From Candidatus Saccharimonadota bacterium (lineage in GTDB: Bacteria > Patescibacteriota > Microgenomatia > UBA1406 > GWC2-37-13), in contig MGBH01000001.1 of the NCBI GenBank assembly GCA_001790095.1, forward strand, positions 1,050,001-1,082,000: a stretch of DNA of 32,000 nt. The letters are read 5' to 3'. The translations under genes were made by a program, and so were the position numbers. This document shows positions 448-21,135 of this stretch, one piece after another. Numbering within the stretch: position 1 is the stretch's first letter; the number at the start of each line of letters is the position of its first letter. A model generated the notes under the pieces. The model made no database searches. It was not told the DNA's origin and saw nothing but the letters and a program-made list of their open reading frames with translations.

Positions 448-485
448 TTCTAATAGCTAAAAGCTAACGATTTAAAACCAATTTG

Positions 486-556
486 TTACGGGGCCAGGAG
501 TCGAACCATGGTCTAGGAGATTATGAGCCTCCTGTGCAGCCGTACACTACCCCGTA
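486..556 (-). tRNA. tRNA with CAT anticodon (elongator Met or Ile2, not initiator-like)
   Basis: Reverse strand reads TACGGGG-TA-GTGT-ACGGCT-GCAC-A-GGAGG-CTCATAA-TCTCC-TAGAC-CATGG-TTCGACT-CCTGG-CCCCGTA-A. It has a perfect 7-bp acceptor, a CUCAUAA anticodon loop and a TTCGACT T-loop. No CCA is encoded. The T-stem is imperfect (see findings). It lacks the three G-C pairs at the base of the anticodon stem expected of an initiator. Confidence 0.75.
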
Positions 557-2459: not shown

Positions 2460-3131
2460 ATGGGATACTCAGGTAAACTATTTCTTCATGAAAAAGCGAG
2501 GGAACTTCGACTAAAAGGATACTCAGTCCGCACAATTCAAAAAAAACTTGGTGTAGCAAAATCTTCTGTTTCGCTTTGGGTTCGCAACATTATGTTAAGC
2601 GATAAGCAAACCCAACAGCTCTTAAATAGTAAAAGGGCAGGAGGGAAAAAAGGATCGATCCTTGCTGCAAAAAGAAAAATAATAAATAAGGAAAAGCAGA
2701 TTAAAGAAATAACCCTTAAAGCGAATAAAGAAATTGGGACATTAACACAGAAAGAGAAGTTTTTCTTCGGGCTTGCCCTATATTTTGCAGAAGGCGATAA
2801 AAAAGGTCACAATGTGGCATTTACCAATTCTGACCCAGAAGCTATTAAATTTATGGCAAACTGGTTTAGAGATTTTTGCAAAGTTAAGAGCGATAAAATG
2901 AGGTGTTATATATATTTACACGAGAATTTGGATGAAAAAAACGCAAGGAATTATTGGCTCAAAACAACAAAGATTCCTCTCGATCAGTTTAGAAAAACAT
3001 ATAGAGTTTCAAATACAAAAAAAACATTTCGAAAAACAAAATATATATATGGAATTTGTCGAATTTCAATAAGTGATGTTAATCTATTGAGGCGTATTTT
3101 AGGTTGGATATCCGGAGTCTTTAATGTATAA
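2460..3131 (+). CDS. HTH domain plus LAGLIDADG-like (single-motif) homing-endonuclease-like protein
   Basis: 223 aa. N-terminal helix-turn-helix GYSVRTIQKKLGVAKSSVSLWV. The central GLALYFAEGDKKG..VAFTNSDPEAIKFMANWF resembles a LAGLIDADG motif followed by the usual beta strand and helix. It ends 12 nt before the intron-containing tRNA. Confidence 0.45.
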   Translation: MGYSGKLFLHEKARELRLKGYSVRTIQKKLGVAKSSVSLWVRNIMLSDKQTQQLLNSKRAGGKKGSILAAKRKIINKEKQIKEITLKANKEIGTLTQKEKFFFGLALYFAEGDKKGHNVAFTNSDPEAIKFMANWFRDFCKVKSDKMRCYIYLHENLDEKNARNYWLKTTKIPLDQFRKTYRVSNTKKTFRKTKYIYGICRISISDVNLLRRILGWISGVFNV

Positions 3132-3142
3132 TAATTAACGTT

Positions 3143-3429
3143 TCCCCTGTAGCTCAATTGGTAGAGCAGGTCGCTGTGAAAAGACGCAGCCCTTAGTAGA
3201 AATATTAAGGTGAAAATCGGGCTAATTCGAGGAAGACCTCCGAATCGGAGGTTAATCTCGAGCTAAATTTCGACTAATATCGACTAAACGTGTAGAGACT
3301 ATACACCCGACCCCTCAAGAGTCCTCCGAGTCGGAGGATGAAGTGGGGAAGAAATAGTCCATTCCTTAAAGTAATTTAGGGGTTAATGTAACGACAAGGT
3401 TACTGGTCCGAGTCCAGTCGGGGGAGCCA
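3143..3429 (+). tRNA. tRNA-Asn(GTT) interrupted by a group I intron; CCA encoded
   Basis: Exon 1 is 3143-3177 (TCCCCTG TA GCTC AATTGGTA GAGC A GGTCG CTGT). Exon 2 is 3389-3429 (TAA CGACA AGGTT ACTGG TCCGAGT CCAGT CGGGGGA G CCA). The joined anticodon loop is CU-GUU-AA with discriminator G. The sequence is very close to E. coli tRNA-Asn as I recall it. Confidence 0.85.
3178..3388 (+). ncRNA. Group I (IC3-like) self-splicing intron in the tRNA-Asn anticodon
   Basis: P1: exon GCUGU pairs with GCAGC (3186-3190), giving a U-G wobble at the splice site. The terminal G is at 3388. P2 is CCTTA/TAAGG (3191-3210). P3 is TCGGG (3217-3221) with CCCGA (3306-3310). The core is GTAGAGACT (3292-3300) and ATAGTCCATTCCTTAAAG (3354-3371), like cyanobacterial tRNA-Leu introns. 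No internal ORF. Confidence 0.8.
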
Positions 3430-3433
3430 TAAC

Positions 3434-3452
3434 GTACTTAATATAACCAAAA
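3434..3452 (+). repeat. R-motif copy 1 (GTACTTAATATAACCAAAA), 4 nt after the tRNA-Asn 3' end
   Basis: 18/18 identical to 4474-4491 and 17/18 to 5465-5482. The core TTAATATA.CAAA also occurs at 3998-4016. Inverted copies lie at 5429-5448 and 5874-5893. Confidence 0.85.
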
Positions 3453-3465
3453 TTTATAACGTAAC

Positions 3466-3930
3466 ATGAACTGGAGTTTGATAAGTAATATTATTACTGC
3501 CCTTGGTTTATTTGAAATTATCAAAAGGATTCTATTATATGCAATTGATAATAATCTAATAAAAAGGAATTTGGAAGTAAGAGGTATTGCAGAAAGAGTC
3601 CTAACATGGAGCAGTTGGTTAAAATTAAGAAACTTCGAACGACCCTTACCACCTGCCATTGCCAATCAACTTTATCTTGACATTTTTAAAATAGAAGACG
3701 TAGATAAAGAACTATCACAGGATATCATGCGACTAATTAATTATCCTCAGATGAACTCATTCTTACACAAATCTTTGGACAAACAACCTCAAAACATGGA
3801 CATTATCCAAGACAACTGTGAAAAATGTCATGATATGACCGATAAATTAAATAAGAAATGTAATAAACTGCGCTATCAACCTATTATTGATATTAAAAAA
3901 ATCGTTAAATCACTTAGCTTCAAAACCTAA
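3466..3930 (+). CDS. Hypothetical protein with N-terminal hydrophobic helix (island module A)
   Basis: 154-aa ORF. The ATG is 32 nt after the start of R copy 1. The N-terminus LISNIITALGLF resembles ILTNIITWLLT of the next ORF. Confidence 0.55.
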   Translation: MNWSLISNIITALGLFEIIKRILLYAIDNNLIKRNLEVRGIAERVLTWSSWLKLRNFERPLPPAIANQLYLDIFKIEDVDKELSQDIMRLINYPQMNSFLHKSLDKQPQNMDIIQDNCEKCHDMTDKLNKKCNKLRYQPIIDIKKIVKSLSFKT

Positions 3931-3997
3931 TGCAAATATGGACATAAAAATATTAAAGCAGTTCTGATTTAAGTTATAAGCTCAAAGTTAGAGAAAA

Positions 3998-4016
3998 TTA
4001 ATATACGCAAATTATG
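3998..4016 (+). repeat. R-motif core copy (TTAATATACGCAAATTATG) ending in the start codon of CDS 4014
   Basis: 18/19 identical to 5469-5487 (TTAATATACCCAAATTATG). Confidence 0.75.
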
Positions 4017-4436
4017 ATAAAGCAAATTCTCACAAACATTATTACCTGGCTACTTACAACAGGAGTGTCTAAATTTCTTGGATTGGACAAATTCGCAAAT
4101 CAACGAGGGATGGGTGGGAAAGGAGGTAATGCGTTAGGTATCAAGGGAGGACAAGCTATTGGAGGACGCGGCGGAAGAGGTGGTATAGGTAAGGGCGGTG
4201 ATGGAGGTGGCGCTACATCAATAGGCGAGGGTAGTTTTTCTATGGGTGGAGAGGGGGGCGAGGCAGGACAGAAAAAGCGAGGGGGTAAGGGTGGACGTGG
4301 ACCATTGCACGTTCTTATGGAGGAATATCCTGAGAAATTCAAAGAGATTTCTGAAAAATTTGGAATCACGGAGGATATGGCTAAGAGAGTTGGAAAAGGT
4401 GGAGACGGAGGGGGTCCATCGAAAAAAATTAAATAA
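4014..4436 (+). CDS. Glycine-rich repeat protein with N-terminal hydrophobic helix (island module B)
   Basis: 140 aa. After MIKQILTNIITWLLTTGVSKFLGL comes about 75 aa of GG[KRQD]GG-type repeats (GGKGGNALGIKGGQAIGGRGGRGGIGKGGDGGG..GGEGGEAG..GGKGGRG). A charged helical tail follows, ending in KGGDGGGPSKK. Confidence 0.6.
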   Translation: MIKQILTNIITWLLTTGVSKFLGLDKFANQRGMGGKGGNALGIKGGQAIGGRGGRGGIGKGGDGGGATSIGEGSFSMGGEGGEAGQKKRGGKGGRGPLHVLMEEYPEKFKEISEKFGITEDMAKRVGKGGDGGGPSKKIK

Positions 4437-4473
4437 TAGAGCCCCCTATTTGATCTAACGTGGAAGCAATAAT

Positions 4474-4491
4474 GTACTTAATATAACCAAA
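4474..4491 (+). repeat. R-motif copy 2 (GTACTTAATATAACCAAA)
   Basis: Exact 18-nt repeat of 3434-3451, and the preceding ATAA(C/T) is also shared. It lies 31 nt before the ATG of CDS 4505. Confidence 0.85.
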
Positions 4492-4504
4492 GTCCACTTT
4501 CACT

Positions 4505-5335
4505 ATGAATGCTACTCAAAAAGGTCAATACATAAATAGAGTTGAAGATACTAGTCACATTATAAATGAAATAGACAGCTTACTTCATAATTTATTAAAT
4601 AAGAATAGGCTCAAAGAAGAGTGGCAAAGAATTGAGAAGGGCGATTCTAAGAATATACATCCGTTCGTTATGGCGGCATATAAAGCCCATAAACAAATAC
4701 AGAGTTTTATTGAAAAAAAAGTTTTTGCAGTTACTCCTGAAATACTTGAATTGTATGAACTCGCTGTTAAAGCAAACCGATTAAAAAAAGCCAACGTTAA
4801 GGGATTAGATAGTAGGTTAAACACTCTTATCTCTCAGGATTTAAATAAATACTACGAATCTAAATATCAACTTCAGGTAGGTGAAATGTTGTTAAATAAA
4901 GGTTACAAAATTAATTTTATCGAGGAAGAAATAAAGCAGACACCTGACATACTTGTGACTCAATTTAACGAAAGCTGTGAGATAGAGTGTAAACACAAGA
5001 ATCCAAATGAAATATCAAAAGACTATGTTAAAAGTATTTATAATAGCACTCAAATTGCTCGTAAACAGTTTTCAAAATCATATGCGGGACTTATTACTAT
5101 TGATACAAGCGAAGAGCAGCTAAAAAAATGTTCTCTTGAAGATTTAAAAAAAGTAATAGATATTGCAATGAAAAATAGTAAATCAATTTCTGGTGTTTTA
5201 CTGACTTTCAAGAGTATTGAAGAAGACCAAGATGATTTTATATATAGACACAGAGTTGGAGGTTTTTTTAATAATCCAAATGCACGATACAAAATACCAG
5301 AATGGCTATTTAAAAACCTAATCAACGTTGACTAA
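4505..5335 (+). CDS. Hypothetical protein with C-terminal PD-(D/E)xK nuclease-like motif (island module C)
   Basis: 276 aa. ..YESKYQLQVGEMLL..TPDILVTQFNESCEIECKHK.. gives D-x12-E-x-K in the beta-strand context typical of the restriction-endonuclease fold. The N-terminal half is helical and unassigned. Confidence 0.5.
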   Translation: MNATQKGQYINRVEDTSHIINEIDSLLHNLLNKNRLKEEWQRIEKGDSKNIHPFVMAAYKAHKQIQSFIEKKVFAVTPEILELYELAVKANRLKKANVKGLDSRLNTLISQDLNKYYESKYQLQVGEMLLNKGYKINFIEEEIKQTPDILVTQFNESCEIECKHKNPNEISKDYVKSIYNSTQIARKQFSKSYAGLITIDTSEEQLKKCSLEDLKKVIDIAMKNSKSISGVLLTFKSIEEDQDDFIYRHRVGGFFNNPNARYKIPEWLFKNLINVD

Positions 5336-5364
5336 TTAAATGAACAAACATTCACTTTCTCCAC

Positions 5365-5482
5365 CTCTTCTCGTATCTGCTGAACAAGTTTGAAATCTTC
5401 AAATACCTTAATGATATGCCCTAAATACTTGGTTATATTAAAGCTACGCTTCTCGAGCCAGTTGGTACTTAATATACCCAAA
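5365..5482 (+). repeat. Composite inter-module repeat U3-L3-R3
   Basis: U3 (TTCTCGTATCTGCTGAACAAGTTTGAAATCTTCAAATA) is about 75% identical by eye to 8965-9003. L3 is TTGGTTATATTAAAGCTACG (5429-5448), an inverted copy of R. CTCGAGCCAGTTGG resembles the tRNA-Asn segment TCCGAGTCCAGTCGG. R3 is GTACTTAATATACCCAAA (5465-5482). L3 and R3 can form an imperfect hairpin of about 17 bp. Confidence 0.75.
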
Positions 5483-5516
5483 TTATGTTATTATATTTAT
5501 TGGAGGTGATAATATC

Positions 5517-5774
5517 ATGACAGAAGAAAATGTTGCCATTGGTAAAAAAGAATTGAGGTGTTTGTATTGCGGGAACAATACATTTATCAAAGCAAAAACG
5601 CTCTTAAATAGAAGATTCTTCGCAATATTTGATTTAGAAGTATTTAATATGATGACAAAAAGAGGCTTAGGGATAGCTTATATTTGTACTAAATGTGGTT
5701 ATAAGCATGAATTTTTTAAAGACATGCCAAAAGATAGAGGGGAAAGAGTGAAAGAAATGTTTCAAATTCCATAA
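5517..5774 (+). CDS. Small zinc-ribbon protein (island module D)
   Basis: 85 aa with a strong GGAGGTGAT SD. It has two CxxC pairs (CLYCG .. CTKCG). It is preceded by an 11-codon uORF (5485-5520, MLLYLLEVIIS) whose TGA overlaps this ATG (ATGA). Confidence 0.6.
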   Translation: MTEENVAIGKKELRCLYCGNNTFIKAKTLLNRRFFAIFDLEVFNMMTKRGLGIAYICTKCGYKHEFFKDMPKDRGERVKEMFQIP

Positions 5775-5807
5775 GTAGTAATTAACAGAATTGGTTTAAC
5801 TTTTTCT

Positions 5808-5903
5808 ATTTCATCCCTGATTTGAGCTACAAGCCTAAAGCCGGAGAAAGCCTTGATAATATGTGATTAACTCATGGTTATATTATAGTTACGATTCTCG
5901 AGC
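5808..5903 (+). repeat. Composite inter-module repeat U4-L4
   Basis: TTTGAGCTACAAGCCTAAAGCC (5821-5842) matches TTTGAGCTACAAGACTAAAATC (7052-7073). It ends in L4 ATGGTTATATTATAGTTACG (5874-5893, inverted R) plus TTCTCGAGC, as in U3-L3. Confidence 0.7.
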
Positions 5904-5977
5904 TGCACTAGATTAAGAGCCTCACAGGATTCTATTTTCATGGTTGTGGTAAAATATATTAATATTAATTTAAAACT

Positions 5978-6982
5978 ATGTTTTTAAAACTTCTTAAACT
6001 TGGTGCTTTGCTTTTAGTATTTACCATCATGGTAATTGCTGTTGTCAAAAAGAACTCTGTTCGTACTGTTTCTGCCAAAGAGTTCATGGAACAAACCAAC
6101 AACGATTTAAATAGCATTGTTGGCAAAATTCATTTTTACCAAAACAGCTTTGCAAAAGTTGGAAAGTTATTTGGTGAGACACAAACGGCCTTTTATGAAA
6201 TAACTACCAGTCGCACTTACTTTGAATCTGTTAAGGACACAAAAAAAGACATACGAGATATACAAAACCTTCTTCATCAAATTGAGCAGCTTCAGTCCAA
6301 ACGCAAGCAGGTAAATCCACCTAAAGAACTTGAGGTTTTGGCCCAAAACCTTGACGAATATCATATTACCATTCATTCCGCACTTGAAAAACTCCTTATT
6401 CACGAGCAGACACAGGAAAAGCTGCTTGGATTATCTACAGAGAGATATAATCAATTATTAGATCGACTCTCCAGCGTTAAAGATGGTGCGGAATTTGTCA
6501 ATCTAATTCTAGAAATAAATCCTCTAGCACAAAAAGTAATACGAGATATGGATTCTTATTCCCTTCCAGAAGCCGAAAAAGCCATTTTTGCCAATGTTAT
6601 TAAACAACACAGGCTTCAAGCTGATACATTTGCTACTTTAGCACAGCTTATTCAATCTCAAGATCCAAACATGAAAGCAAAATTCGATTCTATCATAAAT
6701 GATTTTTCGTCAAAAATGGATACTTTAAAAAAATCTGATGCGGCGGAGATTTATGTAAAAATTTCTCCTATAGGATCAGAATTTAAAACGGCCTTAAGCT
6801 TAGAGAAAAAAATATATGATTATATTAATAACCTTAACATGTTAAATGTTACCAGTAGTCCCAGTGTATCAGTTATTATCCCTAGTGTAACATCTAACTT
6901 TTCTGTTTCACCAACATTAACTCAACCACCACAAAACCAACTAAACAATCCAGGGCAAGGTAAAGGTAAAAACAAAAAGTGA
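5978..6982 (+). CDS. Membrane-anchored coiled-coil protein with Ser/Thr/Pro-rich basic tail (island module E)
   Basis: 334 aa with an N-terminal TM helix (LGALLLVFTIMVIAVV), a long helical region and a tail SSPSVSVIIPSVTSNFSVSPTLTQPP..GQGKGKNKK. No enzymatic motif. Confidence 0.55.
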   Translation: MFLKLLKLGALLLVFTIMVIAVVKKNSVRTVSAKEFMEQTNNDLNSIVGKIHFYQNSFAKVGKLFGETQTAFYEITTSRTYFESVKDTKKDIRDIQNLLHQIEQLQSKRKQVNPPKELEVLAQNLDEYHITIHSALEKLLIHEQTQEKLLGLSTERYNQLLDRLSSVKDGAEFVNLILEINPLAQKVIRDMDSYSLPEAEKAIFANVIKQHRLQADTFATLAQLIQSQDPNMKAKFDSIINDFSSKMDTLKKSDAAEIYVKISPIGSEFKTALSLEKKIYDYINNLNMLNVTSSPSVSVIIPSVTSNFSVSPTLTQPPQNQLNNPGQGKGKNKK

Positions 6983-7039
6983 TAAAAATGACCATTCCAT
7001 TGCCAAGAAAGAGTTAGTATTAAGCACTTCTTTTCTTTA

Positions 7040-7116
7040 ATTAGGAGAGCTTTTGAGCTACAAGACTAAAATCAGATTATCCTTTGCTATAGCCATCTTG
7101 CGCATGCTTCGAGGGA
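7040..7116 (+). repeat. Inter-module repeat U5 (degenerate)
   Basis: It shares TTTGAGCTACAAG.CTAAA with U4. Its end GCATGCTTCGAGGGA (7102-7116) recurs as GCATGAGCTTGAGGGA at 8107-8122. Confidence 0.55.
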
Positions 7117-7146
7117 CAAGGAGGAGAGATAAGTGATACAAGCAAA

Positions 7147-7476
7147 TTAAGGCAAATTAAAACCATAACACCAATCTTCCATTTTTCCTCCTGTTTTGTA
7201 ATAAACATCACAATGAAACTTTCTCCATATTGGAATTGACCAGCTTAAATTTAGACATCTTTTGAAATCTTTAAGACGTAAAACTTTTTGATGATCTGTT
7301 TCATTGGGGGTAATTTTTTGTTTATTATTTATACGACATTCTACTATTTGGGGATTATTCTCAGGATTTGAAGGTGGTATTCCTTCGACAATGAATACCA
7401 ATACAATGACAACGACTAATACCAATAGGAATACAATTAAAAATATTTTACGAAATATTACGGAACGATATCTCAC
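7147..7476 (-). CDS. Small membrane-anchored Cys-containing protein
   Basis: 109 aa with a TM helix (IFLIVFLLVLVVVIVLVFIV) and an extracytoplasmic domain with 4 Cys. It is the only minus-strand ORF in the island. Confidence 0.45.
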   Translation of the reverse strand: MRYRSVIFRKIFLIVFLLVLVVVIVLVFIVEGIPPSNPENNPQIVECRINNKQKITPNETDHQKVLRLKDFKRCLNLSWSIPIWRKFHCDVYYKTGGKMEDWCYGFNLP

Positions 7477-7582
7477 AGATGTATTTTAACAAACAACTTC
7501 GGGGGTTCGACAGACAATTCAAAACAATAATTAAGTTAATTCAAGGATTGAATTTTCATCTTAAAACAACACGATGTTCGCT

Positions 7583-7591
7583 TGATATAAT
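7583..7591 (+). promoter_or_regulatory. Extended -10 (TGATATAAT), 6 nt before ATG 7598
   Basis: TGnTATAAT consensus. With this spacing the ATG falls at the expected transcription start. Confidence 0.55.
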
Positions 7592-7597
7592 TTTCAT

Positions 7598-8092
7598 ATG
7601 GATATAAAAATAAGAGAATATACAGAAAAAGATTTGTTGTTTGTTAAGTCTTCATTTGAAAACCTTCATGATTATGTAGTTTCAATAGACCCGATAAAAA
7701 GGATACGGAAAATGCCCGGATATCTCGAAGTTTTTTTTGGAAAGTTTGTCAACAATATTAAAAACAACCAAGGCAAAATCTATATCTCTGAATTTGAAGG
7801 AAAACCGATAGGTTTTGTTGGAGGTTTTGTTGCCGATAAACAGTCCGAGGAAAATTTGTTGGAAGTTATTCCATCACAGTTAGGAATTATTAGTGACATC
7901 TACACTATTCCGGAATATAGGGGAAAAAAAATTGGAGGGCGATTGATAAAACAAATAGAAGAATATTTAGTGTCTAAAAATTGTGATGCAATATGGATAA
8001 ATACAAATGGCTTTAATACTTCAGCGCTTCGACTATATAAATCAATTGGATTTTCAGAAAGAGAAATTGGACTCATGAAAAAAATTAAATAA
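7598..8092 (+). CDS. GNAT family N-acetyltransferase (paralog 1)
   Basis: 164 aa. Acetyl-CoA motif A IPEYRGKKIGGRLI, then AIWINT..NTSALRLYKSIGF. It is about 88% aa identical to CDS 9582..10076. Confidence 0.8.
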   Translation: MDIKIREYTEKDLLFVKSSFENLHDYVVSIDPIKRIRKMPGYLEVFFGKFVNNIKNNQGKIYISEFEGKPIGFVGGFVADKQSEENLLEVIPSQLGIISDIYTIPEYRGKKIGGRLIKQIEEYLVSKNCDAIWINTNGFNTSALRLYKSIGFSEREIGLMKKIK

Positions 8093-8260
8093 AACACTTT
8101 CTAATTGCATGAGCTTGAGGGAGTTTGGAGAATGTTATTATAACCTACTTAATTACAGGATTAAACGGTTCTAAACGGACACGCTTAAACAAGGTGGTCA
8201 TTGTTCTAACGAAATAATTATACTTGTTGTAGATTTCCATTAATGGTAATCTTATAGAAG

Positions 8261-8881
8261 ATGTCTAAAGAATTTTTCATTGCTAGACGACCATCGCACT
8301 TCAGCGTTAATCCTTTAGTAAAAGCGTTTATTCTTTCTGAAATGTTTTTATGGTCTGCGTGGAATTTTGTTATTCCAATTTTTGCAATTTTTGCAACAAA
8401 TGAAATACAGGGTGGCAATGTCAAAATTGCTGCTTCCGCTTATAGTACCTACTTAATTGTTAGGGTTATCACTGAATTAATAGCGGGTAAATATTTATTA
8501 GACAAGAAGGATGCTGAGAAAATAATAGACACAGTTATTGGGACTTTTATCATAGCGGTTTCTTTTATTGGTTTTAGTTTATCCAATACAGTTTTACCAT
8601 TATTTATATTTTTCGGAACGATTGGAATAGGTATGGGGATGAGTGCTCCAGCCAAATATTCTCTTTTTTCTTGTCATTTAGACAAAGGAAAAGAAGCACT
8701 CGAATGGAGTTTTCATGACGCAATAAGTTTTACAGGGATGGCATTATCTGCAACCTTGGGTGGCTTTATTGCCGCTGAATATGGATTTAAGTTATTATTT
8801 TTCTTAGCATCTTTAGTCAACCTTATTGCAATCGTTCCTTATCTTGTATATTTACGACTTAATCATTCAAACGAACATTGA
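8261..8881 (+). CDS. Six-TM half-size MFS-like membrane protein (possibly 5'-truncated transporter)
   Basis: 206 aa with about 6 hydrophobic helices. It looks like the C-terminal half of a 12-TM MFS, and no N-terminal half is present upstream. Confidence 0.45.
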   Translation: MSKEFFIARRPSHFSVNPLVKAFILSEMFLWSAWNFVIPIFAIFATNEIQGGNVKIAASAYSTYLIVRVITELIAGKYLLDKKDAEKIIDTVIGTFIIAVSFIGFSLSNTVLPLFIFFGTIGIGMGMSAPAKYSLFSCHLDKGKEALEWSFHDAISFTGMALSATLGGFIAAEYGFKLLFFLASLVNLIAIVPYLVYLRLNHSNEH

Positions 8882-8959
8882 GACAAATAACACAAAAATG
8901 CTCGCGAAATCTTCCATTCATTAACTTTTATCACTTGAGAATCAGGCTACATTTTTCAA

Positions 8960-9046
8960 CCTATTTTCGTATTTGCTGAACGAGCCTAAAACCTTCAAAT
9001 ATTTTATAATATACGATAGCTTAATAAACAAACCCCCGAGGTTGTT
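8960..9046 (+). repeat. Inter-module repeat U6
   Basis: TTTTCGTATTTGCTGAACGAGCCTAAAACCTTCAAATA (8965-9002) matches U3. Its 3' part CAAACCCCCGAGGTTGT (9029-9045) is the inverted complement (15/17) of ACAACTTCGGGGGTTCG at 7493-7509. Confidence 0.65.
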
Positions 9047-9073
9047 CAAAACATCTTCTTATTGCCTCTGCTT

Positions 9074-9084
9074 GGGGGAGCCAT
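9074..9084 (+). repeat. 11-bp direct repeat of the tRNA-Asn 3' end (GGGGGAGCCAT)
   Basis: Identical to 3420-3430 (acceptor 3' strand, discriminator, CCA and 1 nt). Candidate distal att scar. Confidence 0.6.
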
Positions 9085-9132
9085 CCTCATTCTATGCTGT
9101 CACATAAGCCTACTTCAATAAATATCCCACGG

Positions 9133-9480: not shown

Positions 9481-9566
9481 CCATACGCTCCTTATTACTT
9501 CGGTTATGGGGAAGCTAATAGATCACCATTACTTTATTTTCAACTTCAAACAGCGTTCGGTACTCT

Positions 9567-9575
9567 TGATATAAT
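9567..9575 (+). promoter_or_regulatory. Extended -10 (TGATATAAT), 6 nt before ATG 9582
   Basis: Same element as 7583-7591. Confidence 0.55.
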
Positions 9576-9581
9576 CACCAT

Positions 9582-10076
9582 ATGGATATAGACATAAGAG
9601 AATATACAGAAAAAGATTTGTTGTTTGTTAAGTCTTCATTTGAAAACCTTCATGATTATGTAGTTTCAATAGACCCGATAAAAAGGATACGGAAAATGCC
9701 CGGATATCTCGAAGTTTTTTTTGAAAAGTTTGTCAACAATATTAAAAACAACCAAGGCAAAATCTATATCTCTGAATTTGAAGGAAAACCAATAGGCTTT
9801 ATCGGAGGTTTTGTTGCTGATAAACAGTCTACGGAAAATCTGTTAGAGGTTGTTCCGTCTAAACTCGGAATTATCAGCGATATTTATCTTATTCCGGAAT
9901 ATAGGGGTAAAAAGATAGGAGAAAAACTCATGAAACGCATGGAAGAATATCTTATTTCTAATAATTGTGATGCGATATGGGTAGATACAAATAGCTTTAA
10001 TAAACCAGCACTTCGATTATATAAATCAATTGGATTTTCTGAAAGAGAAATTGGGCTCATGAAGAAAATTAAATAA
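9582..10076 (+). CDS. GNAT family N-acetyltransferase (paralog 2)
   Basis: 164 aa with IPEYRGKKIGEKLM and ALRLYKSIGF. Paralog of 7598..8092. Confidence 0.8.
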   Translation: MDIDIREYTEKDLLFVKSSFENLHDYVVSIDPIKRIRKMPGYLEVFFEKFVNNIKNNQGKIYISEFEGKPIGFIGGFVADKQSTENLLEVVPSKLGIISDIYLIPEYRGKKIGEKLMKRMEEYLISNNCDAIWVDTNSFNKPALRLYKSIGFSEREIGLMKKIK

Positions 10077-10182
10077 AACATTACTGGGAAATATAGTGAA
10101 AAACCCCTTAACTATTTAATAAAATTGAATACAGAACTACTCTGATAAAAGTTTTATATTAGTATAATAAAGGTGATAAATA

Positions 10183-10905
10183 ATGCAAAAGAATAAGATT
10201 CAAACTCTTCCTATTATATTGATAATATTGGTAATCGTTTTGATAATAAGTGGTTTTTTTGTGTTTAAAAATTATAACAAGAAGGAAAGAAATCAAGTAA
10301 ACGATGCCCATATAAGCTATATTCCTTTTGGCGACTCATTTACTATCGGTTTAGGGGTACCAGAATCTCATCGCCTGCCAAACCTTATGGTTGAGCATTT
10401 TGCCAAAGAAGGAATTAATATTGGGATTCTTGAAAATCCCGCGGTGTCCGGTTATACCGTTGACGATGTGATTCAATTTGAACTGCCGGTATTAGAGACC
10501 TTAAAACCTGATTTTGTCACAGTTTTTATCGGTACAAATGATAGTTTTTCCCGTACAGATGTTAAGCTTTTTGAGTCTGATTATAAAAAACTTCTTGATA
10601 AGCTCCAAAAACTGCTAGTAAACCCAAAAAAAATTGTGTTGATTACTATCCCCGATTATTCGCAATTTCCTGGTTTAAAACAGTATAAAAACAACAATCT
10701 TCCTCATCTTATTTCCTCATACAACGAGATAATAAAACAAGAATCTATAAAACGAGATTTATTTCTGGCAGATATTTATCCGGTTAGCCAAACTATGACC
10801 GAAGAGAAAGATTTTATATCAGACGGAATTCATCCTTCTAAAGCAGGGTATATGAAATGGGAAAAAGTAATTTATCCAAAAGTCAAAAAGTTGTTACTTA
10901 ACTAA
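10183..10905 (+). CDS. SGNH/GDSL hydrolase family protein with N-terminal signal anchor
   Basis: FGDSFTIG (block I Ser), GTNDS (block III) and DGIHPS (block V Asp/His). AAGGTGAT SD. Confidence 0.8.
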   Translation: MQKNKIQTLPIILIILVIVLIISGFFVFKNYNKKERNQVNDAHISYIPFGDSFTIGLGVPESHRLPNLMVEHFAKEGINIGILENPAVSGYTVDDVIQFELPVLETLKPDFVTVFIGTNDSFSRTDVKLFESDYKKLLDKLQKLLVNPKKIVLITIPDYSQFPGLKQYKNNNLPHLISSYNEIIKQESIKRDLFLADIYPVSQTMTEEKDFISDGIHPSKAGYMKWEKVIYPKVKKLLLN

Positions 10906-20547: not shown

Positions 20548-21135
20548 ATGACCACTTTCGTTCTTCATGGAGGAAGAACAAAAATAGATTCTGTAGATAA
20601 TAATTTATTCTTTAAACAATTCACGGATACCGTTTCAAAAAACCGTGTAAAAATCCTCCTTTGTTATTGGGCTAGAGAAAGAGGAAGATGGAATGAGTTA
20701 TTTGAAAAAGACAGGATCAGAATTCTAATGCAGACAAATAAAAAAACAGATATTGATTTAATTGAGACAATAGAAGCTTTACATGTGCAATTGAAAGAAG
20801 CAGACGTATTATATTTCTCCGGTGGAGAAGAGGAGCATATGGGGCCATACAAATTACAGTTACCGTTTTTAAAAGATGCACTAGATAACAAAGTATTTAT
20901 CGGAAGTTCAATGGGGGCATTTCTTGCCTCAAAACATTATGTTTTATCACTTGATAGTCAAAACACCGATGCAGTATATAGTGGATTGGGTTTAGTTCCA
21001 TATAACATACTTTGTCACTGGGATATAGAGACAAACAAAGATAAGAAGATAGCTATGTTAAAAGAAAAGGATCCTCAAACACCTCTTCTACTTATTGAAG
21101 AGGAAAAATTTGAAATACTAAAAGTATTGGTTTAA
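20548..21135 (+). CDS. Peptidase S51 (peptidase E-like) / type 1 glutamine-amidotransferase-like protein
   Basis: 195 aa with DVLYFSGGEE, the nucleophile elbow IGSSMGA, and LCHWD. Confidence 0.6.
   Translation: MTTFVLHGGRTKIDSVDNNLFFKQFTDTVSKNRVKILLCYWARERGRWNELFEKDRIRILMQTNKKTDIDLIETIEALHVQLKEADVLYFSGGEEEHMGPYKLQLPFLKDALDNKVFIGSSMGAFLASKHYVLSLDSQNTDAVYSGLGLVPYNILCHWDIETNKDKKIAMLKEKDPQTPLLLIEEEKFEILKVLV

Follow-up and report, generated by a model that had tools for sequence, protein, structure and literature searches.

The staphylococcal cassette chromosome (SCC) islands, among them SCCmec, the arginine catabolic mobile element (ACME) and pseudo-SCC, use the large serine recombinases (LSRs) CcrAB or CcrC and are inserted at the 3' end of a housekeeping gene, rlmH (orfX). 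SCC elements stack in tandem with short direct repeats between them, and some lack recombinase genes and are thought to depend on recombinases acting in trans. The integrases of the Sulfolobus spindle-shaped virus (SSV, fusellovirus) type in archaea are of the tyrosine type, have attP within the int gene, and have that gene split into substantial pieces by integration at a tRNA. The classic cases of cis-mobilizable elements (CIMEs) involve tyrosine integrases and longer segments of identity, with no link to the integrase reading frame. The attachment sites of phage serine integrases are described as 40–50 bp, dyad-symmetric and with a minimal shared core in the literature, PMC3783163 included. 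Here we investigate a 5.6-kb run of small genes at the 3' end of a tRNA-Asn gene in a bacterium of the candidate phyla radiation (CPR), within a stretch of 32,000 nucleotides from contig MGBH01000001.1 (the window). It is very probably a decayed tandem stack of about six small integrative units, built by and derived from a family of LSR elements that occurs in Roizmanbacteria-type CPR bacteria.

The stack resembles SCC islands in LSR insertion at the 3' end of a conserved gene, tandem units and members without a recombinase. It differs in its tRNA-Asn target, in units of 0.4–2 kb that usually hold one gene (SCC elements are 3–60 kb), in an att site that lies inside the recombinase gene, in units that each carry a piece of this gene, and in its CPR hosts. 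As in the SSV-type elements, tRNA integration would partition the integrase gene to opposite ends of the element, but here a serine recombinase would lose only a C-terminal tail of about 45 codons and gain a short ending antisense to the tRNA. Like CIMEs and the products of accretion of integrative and conjugative or integrative and mobilizable elements, which often lie at the 3' ends of tRNA or other genes, the units are non-autonomous tandem remnants that have kept both att sites (PMC5704250, PMC5812530). Unlike these, they involve a serine-type recombinase, a core of about 4 nt and units the size of integron cassettes. The phage serine integrases TP901-1, A118, Bxb1 and phiC31 share the domain architecture and include the closest relatives, TP901-1 and A118 being the nearest with solved structures. 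The annotated phage enzymes are only 23–27% identical, however, and here the att site is inside the gene and miniature cassettes are associated. No phage genes were recognised around the recombinase genes of the relatives, and viral contigs contained neither sites of the repeat U described below nor relatives of the recombinase. To integron arrays the likeness is one of function only, with small single-gene co-oriented cassettes, a conserved 3' element and similar cargo classes; here the site is double-stranded, dyad-symmetric and part of a serine recombinase gene. Literature searches returned nothing on such elements in CPR bacteria, and the family is apparently both widespread and undescribed there.

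The identity of the units follows from that of their repeats. Two repeat families of the window are one intergenic element of about 130 nt, U, which is found after five successive genes. A hidden Markov model of U matches five sites, all inside 3950-9088, and none elsewhere in the window or in the 8 kb upstream. U has a coding signature on the strand opposite to the neighbouring genes, with codon-position entropies of 0.85/0.58/1.22 and a synonymous fraction of 0.62 in the coding frame versus 0.18 and 0.08 in the other frames. Most copies (71/82) are free of stop codons, and the insertions in some are multiples of three (33 nt in locus L033; contigs and loci are cited by such numbers). That U was part of a long gene initially seemed wrong, since its frames were of 65 codons or fewer; this was settled by extending the frame upstream. 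Beyond the junction the open frame continues for 505 codons in L083; other loci give 168, 81, 78 and 60 codons, and from the L083 gene down to these shorter frames the loci make up a decay series.

The L083 gene (L083:2144-3796, minus strand) encodes a protein of 550 aa with Resolvase (E 5e-30) and Recombinase (E 3e-10) domains, a CxxC…CxxC ribbon and a coiled coil. Its catalytic motif, YIRVSTVEQ, has the form Y-x-R-V-S-T-x-x-Q, as do YIRVSTVGQ, YARVSTEEQ and similar motifs in L018, L016 and L022. The protein ends …RISSNW/LENRNSNITTQLACIFKTFEDFRLVRQIREEIEKV… (here and below a slash marks the junction), and its last 45 or so codons are U. U is thus the 3' tail of an LSR gene, and a second conserved motif next to the junctions, the arm (P'), encodes the residues just upstream. 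Two U copies of the window align with this recombinase by tblastn, that at 5329..5458 with residues 496-535 (65% identity) and that at 5771..5903 with residues 501-538 (63%). The sequence-only reading of this DNA, made before these comparisons, had treated the intergenic repeats as independent R and U families; they are instead fragments of an integrase gene. Inside the L083 gene the junction falls in an attachment site of about 52 bp, dyad-symmetric, with the centre CTCGAG, the core GAGC and outer inverted repeats of 12-13 nt. At the level of sequence this is what is expected of an LSR att site, short and symmetric with few shared central bases: identity is confined to GAGC(CA), and the flanks diverge immediately.

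With these elements the window can be read from the tRNA to the last junction as follows.

3143..3177, plus strand: tRNA-Asn(GUU) exon 1, read directly, with the acceptor 5' strand, D arm, anticodon stem 5' strand and CTGT
3178..3388, plus strand: group I intron in the anticodon loop, between anticodon positions 35/36 (Rfam RF00028)
3389..3429, plus strand: tRNA-Asn exon 2, ending GGGGGAGCCA; attB-side attachment site, core GAGC at 3424-3427
3430..3451, minus strand: arm P' no. 1 (TAACGTACTTAATATAACCAAA); the minus strand encodes LVILSTLW, a remnant of the recombinase codons just before the crossover
3466..3930, plus strand: cargo gene o154, an orphan with an N-terminal helix; no family found
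3954..4010, minus strand: shortened piece of U (3954-4008) joined to part of an arm (3998-4010); nhmmer E 0.002, motif match TTAATATACGCAA
4014..4436, plus strand: cargo gene o140, Gly-rich; 92% identical over 132 aa to L105:279-674
4459..4491, no strand: internal junction, a decayed half-site like the tRNA 3' end (CGTGGAAGCAATAATG), then arm P' no. 2; minus strand LVILSTLLLPR
4505..5335, plus strand: cargo gene o276, an orphan with a weak restriction-endonuclease-like match
5329..5458, minus strand: U copy, the 3' tail of a serine recombinase gene (…NWLEKRSFNITKYLGHIIKVFEDFKLVQQIREEVEKV…); nhmmer E 3.9e-27
5429..5481, no strand: nearly intact composite attP-like site TTGGTTATATTAAAGCTACGCTTCTC/GAGCCAGTTGGTACTTAATATACCCAA, with outer inverted repeats and a CTCGAG centre
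5517..5774, plus strand: cargo gene o85, CxxC…CxxC zinc ribbon
5771..5903, minus strand: U copy with an internal stop, ending …ACGATTCTCGAGC, with no arm after it; nhmmer E 2.9e-31
5978..6982, plus strand: cargo gene o334, membrane anchor and coiled coil
7026..7133, minus strand: partial decayed U copy, fragment …SDFSLVAQK…; nhmmer E 6e-12
7147-7476, minus strand: o109, in the last segment of the array (7147..8881)
7598-8092: GNAT1, in the last segment
8261-8881: half-size MFS gene, in the last segment
8939..9088, minus strand: degenerate U (…IFEGFRLVQQIRK, a stop, then VEK) with stops and an insertion, found by nhmmer, with a tblastn match at 8940-9008; translation WLPQAEA…

The sequence-only reading had started from an 11-mer at the end of the tRNA, and this repeat is as it described. 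GGGGGAGCCAT occurs exactly at 3420-3430 and 9074-9084, with no other copy in the window on either strand even when one mismatch is allowed. At the first site the repeat is made up of the acceptor 3' strand, discriminator and CCA of tRNA-Asn plus one further nucleotide, so that the anchor holds too. From the base composition of the window 0.0013 additional same-strand exact copies are expected, rising to 0.025 if any 11-mer of the last 27 nt of the tRNA counts; the figure of 0.015 given earlier was of the right order. The second copy is the terminal junction of the degenerate U, which is attR-like, its left half mimicking the tRNA end. Sequences resembling the tRNA end had also been noticed within the array, and these are more extensive than was stated, forming a 33-nt family of the tRNA 3' end and its flank at 3419-3451, 4459-4491 (88%) and 5450-5482 (70%). 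The flank motif TTAATATA(A/C)CCAA has five copies, all within 3438-5481, versus 0.3 expected. The proposal would have suffered had the repeats been scattered, and within the window U and the arm are limited to 3430-9088. Decayed left halves like those at 4459 and 9074 have counterparts at internal or distal junctions in L007 and L016, and the architecture of 5429-5481 recurs at junctions between cassettes in other contigs.

At the tRNA-Asn locus itself no tRNA was detected by ARAGORN or by Rfam at gathering thresholds, because the 211-nt group I intron splits the anticodon loop. A permissive Rfam scan gives RF00028 at 66.4 bits (gathering score 50; E 1.6e-16), with the full model at 3166-3381, and the spliced exons fold in ARAGORN as a canonical tRNA-Asn(gtt) with an encoded CCA. 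The gene thus has both defining features of a tRNA gene with a group I intron, the canonical splice product and the match to the covariance model, and the alignment with the intron-less orthologs of L004, L018, L022 and L033 runs through the splice site. The intron is also present in L005, L007 and L029 and, by sequence, in L037, L066, L111 and L139. Directly 5' of the tRNA in the window is an open reading frame (ORF; 2460-3131, plus strand, 223 aa) with a weak N-terminal helix-turn-helix match and a LAGLIDADG-like motif (FGLALYFAEGDK). Homologs (50-61% identical) lie directly upstream of the intron-containing tRNA in L005, L007, L013, L029 and L139. The intron-less tRNA-Asn loci have none there, but in L004 a paralog with 34% identity lies some 1.9 kb upstream. 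This ORF is possibly a free-standing homing endonuclease, an assignment that neither Pfam nor PDB backs. At a distance of 2.6 kb tRNA-Asn is preceded by a gene for tRNA-Met(CAT) (485-556, minus strand), which has no associated repeats or cassettes; L142 has the same pair.

The genes enclosed by the repeats are, as first described, nearly all on the plus strand and mostly orphans, and Pfam confirms the GNAT and the half-size MFS gene. The family calls for the zinc ribbon and the PD-(D/E)xK-like gene stand on weak matches only. A second GNAT gene, GNAT2 (9582-10076), lies outside the proposed island, GNAT1 lying inside. The two similar stretches (7552-8096 and 9536-10080) are 1984 bp apart, and each includes about 45 nt of upstream sequence. 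Over roughly the first 250 bp of coding sequence, the 5' half, the genes are about 99% identical, and over the rest about 80%. This pattern suggests that the paralogs may have been homogenised over their 5' halves by recent gene conversion.

Domain searches and tblastn found no recombinase gene anywhere in the 32 kb, as the sequence-only reading had already reported, only three C-terminal tail fragments. The gene that would mark an LSR element is present instead in L083, L007, L016, L018, L021 and L030; the window array is a derivative of such elements and not an autonomous member. At 3954-4010 the middle of the site is deleted and the junction is dead. Because most junctions are truncated or bear stops, and no recombinase is present, the array of about six mostly decayed units is largely a fossil: it records earlier insertions, and its genes now act as accessory content.

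The same ends are found far beyond this genome. The 29-nt end of U is present exactly in at least 119 metagenome stretches. Conservation extends about 100 nt to the left of the U end and stops abruptly after GAGC (128 instances); the base that follows GAGC in 109 distinct ends is mostly A (55) or C (34), less often T (18) and rarely G (2). The recurrent map is tRNA-Asn (…GGAGC), then the arm P' as CA-N4-GGCACTTAATATACCAAG, then cargo, then U…TTCTCGAGC. Units are single or, often, in tandem, and in tandem U joins the next arm directly. Cassettes without an LSR consist of an arm, one or two cargo genes and U in 0.4-2 kb, with a median unit of 820 bp and one co-oriented ORF in 33 of 50 units. Each is bounded by an arm (the P' half-site) and U (the P half-site) and holds only cargo, with no recombination genes, as in CIMEs. 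The cargo is of the kind usual for accessory DNA; it includes Fic/DOC, AbiEii, GNAT, methyltransferases and many orphans, with no recombinase. It also changes neighbours. In L105 the homolog of o140 directly follows a tRNA-Asn without intron and is paired with another gene, and a 176-aa gene common to L047 and L050 (93%) has different junction partners on both sides.

The attachment position at the end of tRNA-Asn is the junction in L033, L076, L090, L105, L149, L154 and others as well. Between the tRNA end and the common type of U end the identity is GAGC only, or GAGCCA when the arm starts with CA; the 11-mer of the window is a lineage-specific longer match. L033, which shares the left flank of the window, has one complete unit. 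Its intron-less tRNA-Asn, ending …GGGGGAGCCA, is followed directly by GTTGGCACCTAATATACCCAAAA, one 258-aa gene and U ending …TTGGTTATATTAGAGTTACGATTCTCGAGC/AATTTT, and joining the right end of this unit to its left end recreates the composite site of the window at 5429-5481. Two possibilities had been left side by side by the sequence-only reading, repeated integration or decay at a tRNA attachment site and a cassette-accumulating locus. Identical ends with unrelated cargo in 119 or more contigs and in the relatives support both.

Some variants of these ends were also seen. Six loci (L045, L073, L077, L095, L109 and L156; e.g. L156 reverse-complement 10840-10870) have a second allele of the right end of U (…AGATTAATCCTAGGATTACGGAGCCA). 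It equals the common 29-mer region in length, reads WLRNPRINLT… and resembles a tRNA T-arm and acceptor. A second arm class, P'' (TGAATTTGTCTTAATCTAACCAT), encodes MVRLRQIQ. Together they indicate that several recombinase and site lineages coexist. Where tRNA-Asn precedes the P'' arm or other sequence (L004 10700-10720, L005 11590-11600, L022 8820-8830) it ends …GGGGGAGC/TG with no encoded CCA. Genes before the common arm read GAGC/CA (as at 3424-3429 in the window), and thus the last two bases of the encoded CCA come from the inserted DNA. Additionally, a short GC-rich motif (…CCTTCGACAAGCTCAGGA… and variants) lies inside U in L097 (294-501), L133 (571-805), L089 (5325-5521) and L033 (7342-7374), and just outside some U ends in the right flanks of L063, L066 and L138. 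In L033 the insertion, of 33 nt, is in frame. The motif may be a small repeat, mobile or palindromic, that belongs to these genomes.

Recombinase genes are found at the tRNA-Asn position in six relatives that share the left flank of the window. With the L083 LSR as query, tblastn finds full-length homologs on the opposite strand directly after tRNA-Asn in L016, L018, L021 and L030, a copy in L022 that also directly follows tRNA-Asn but is frameshifted, and one in L007 at a distance of 2.3 kb. The proteins of L007, L016, L018, L021 and L030 have Resolvase, Recombinase and Zn_ribbon_recom domains, and the L022 fragment keeps the first two. The L018 gene ends …QVIIREDW/LPRLDSDQ, its last eight codons and stop coming from the antisense of the tRNA 3' end, and the frames in L016, L021 and L030 likewise run into tRNA-Asn. 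A search for direct repeats at the far ends of the integrase-bearing elements gave one candidate only, in L016.

Relatives for comparison of gene order were 33 loci in Roizmanbacteria-type genomes, chosen by the block to the left: YqeY, a 134-aa protein, a 192-aa RNase-H-like protein and then tRNA-Asn. No gene to the right of tRNA-Asn out to 12.9 kb (3.4-12.9 kb) has a homolog in these loci. The tRNA is therefore a breakpoint in synteny. The sole match on the right is an S51 peptidase at 20.5 kb, against a gene 1.3 kb from tRNA-Asn in L005. Genes for this peptidase recur near tRNA-Asn or U, at 20548-21135 in the window (17 kb from tRNA-Asn), L005 12947-13528, L083 1533-2177 and L004 14017-14643, and the window and L005 copies are 74% identical. 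This recurrence hints that a variable, element-derived region may reach well beyond 9084. As empty sites, L004 and L022 were rejected, as both carry the second arm class P'' and L022 also has the frameshifted recombinase; of L004, L005 and L022, only L005 may be a candidate.

How might such a stack arise? In the autonomous form, the sequences show an LSR gene of about 550 aa that reads toward the attachment site, with an attP of about 52 bp within its last 50 or so codons and a crossover region GAGC that is the antisense of the codons W/L. The recombinase would join this internal site to the end of tRNA-Asn (…GGAGC), crossing over inside GAGC. Such joining leaves the body of the gene abutting the tRNA (…W/LPRLDSDQ and a stop) and the detached 45-codon tail, U, at the distal end. 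Small cassettes may arise by deletion or replacement of the recombinase body with both half-sites kept, and would probably be mobilised in trans by an LSR encoded elsewhere. The finding of homologous cargo with different neighbours is indirect support for mobilisation in trans. Successive insertions would stack the units. According to PMC3783163, canonical LSRs recombine only attP with attB and allow no other pairings. Under such a strict rule stacking needs one of two routes: a tRNA-like left half may regenerate an attB-like site, as in SCC islands, or homologous recombination may act through U.

That rule is one of several points that weigh against the proposed origin of the stack. Excised circles, polymorphism between empty and filled sites and signs of movement in reads were all missing, and none of the contigs was circular. 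The full-length U-type LSR is present in one contig only (L083), and the LSRs near tRNA-Asn are only 24-34% identical to it. Among the best 25 Pfam families of 150 ORFs flanking the arrays no recombinase is enriched. At 9074 the junction has GGGGG in place of the usual TTCTC to the left of GAGC, a nonstandard U end. Likewise, synteny does not locate where the inserted DNA ends on the right: the closure of the island at 9084 put forward by the sequence-only reading is the last recognisable junction, but with synteny uninformative it is not proven as the end. Finally, 24 contigs with an identical flank protein have one gene order throughout, and the array is thus fixed in that species. The expectation of differently filled tRNA-Asn sites holds among the relatives but not among contigs of the same species.

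The alternative that survives best accepts site-specific recombination for the first insertion only. The stack would have been built mainly by homologous recombination through the U/arm segments of about 130-200 bp, or by local duplication or gene conversion. U copies are 75-95% identical over more than 100 bp, enough for RecA-type exchange; the pairing rule for canonical LSRs (PMC3783163) denies attP recombination with hybrid sites; and the window itself has the gene conversion of the GNAT paralogs and the deletion-fused junction at 3954-4010. Against this, the junctions in many lineages fall at the identical nucleotide, after GAGC, with the arm to the right and differing left halves, which is the precision expected of site-specific exchange. 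In addition, the arms next to the tRNA are about 25-70 bp, short for homologous exchange. We consider growth mainly by homologous recombination unlikely.

Could the frame of about 70 aa across composite sites instead encode a functional small coiled-coil protein, such as a regulator or directionality factor? U is under strong coding constraint. Its peptide matches database proteins of 27-136 aa in 159 clusters and none longer, gene callers predicting proteins of 40-81 aa. Some of these start with ATG and are extended at the N-terminus by a conserved segment, for which the arm and sequence beyond it code, and are located at junctions between cassettes; AlphaFold gives a 71-aa U-containing protein as a single long helix (pLDDT, the predicted local distance difference test, 80). 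A word-index search with the N-terminus of P0034 matched only itself. However, neither a start codon nor a ribosome-binding site is conserved, at distal ends many copies are without any upstream part, and the extension aligns with the C-terminal region of full-length LSRs, so that the small forms are truncations. A functional small protein is therefore very improbable.

An integron-like system, or a cluster of attC sites lacking an integron integrase (CALIN), would have a tyrosine integron integrase acting on folded single-stranded attC hairpins. The units are indeed small, mostly single-gene, co-oriented and in tandem, each ending in a conserved element of about 130 nt, with cargo rich in toxins, acetyltransferases and orphans and no integrase in the window. 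But U is coding sequence, a piece of a serine recombinase gene, and RNAalifold finds neither a conserved hairpin nor other conserved structure in 52 copies (-2.06 kcal/mol, 0 compensatory pairs); single-stranded folding of composite sites is weak (z about 0 to -2.7). On the same grounds the readings of U as attC or as a structured RNA were rejected. The arrays are anchored at the end of a tRNA and not at an attI beside intI, no tyrosine integrase occurs in the window or among the top families of the ORFs flanking the arrays, and neither attC hairpins nor the set of IntI, attI and Pc promoter was found (no Phage_integrase-type protein in the window). We give an integron origin hardly any credence.

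The least tenable alternative, a coincidental 11-mer with upstream motifs that are a reused local promoter or leader, can draw on a -10-like TAATAT in the arm 0-35 nt upstream of four start codons and on an 11-mer that by itself is only moderately improbable, but it has next to no chance of being right, since comparison across genomes already contradicts it: in more than 100 contigs of different lineages unrelated genes at tRNA-Asn lie between this arm and U, and both are pieces of a recombinase reading frame, with the arm motif missing from the other 27 kb of the window. The arm as a promoter motif was rejected, the motif being limited to 3438-5481 there.

Returning to units derived from an LSR by site-specific insertion, a bolder version may be entertained, and we hold it to be doubtful though conceivable: CPR bacteria may run an integron-like cassette economy with a serine recombinase whose C-terminal tail is swapped at each integration. 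The episomal form would carry the 45-aa U tail, and the integrated form would end in eight antisense-tRNA residues. Every cassette would then keep a usable spare tail, and the codon conservation of U would reflect tails repeatedly re-joined to working bodies. The tail may even be a directionality switch: with the full tail the enzyme would integrate, and in the truncated form it would excise or be silent. If true, this would explain stacking despite the strict rule of attP with attB.

The mobile elements of CPR/Patescibacteria are very poorly known, and this family offers defined ends, a defined target (the tRNA-Asn 3' end) and a recombinase that has been identified. At least 119 metagenome stretches belong to it, and its tail fragments fill 159 protein clusters. 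For annotation, many CPR 'hypothetical proteins' of 40-80 aa are integrase tails, and missed intron-containing tRNA-Asn genes are recoverable. Genome engineers look for natural attP/attB pairs from divergent serine integrases to use as orthogonal tools. A recombinase gene cut by its own reaction raises testable questions on the control of directionality. Integron-sized single-gene cassettes can be built around serine-recombinase sites, a functional parallel reached with a different enzyme.

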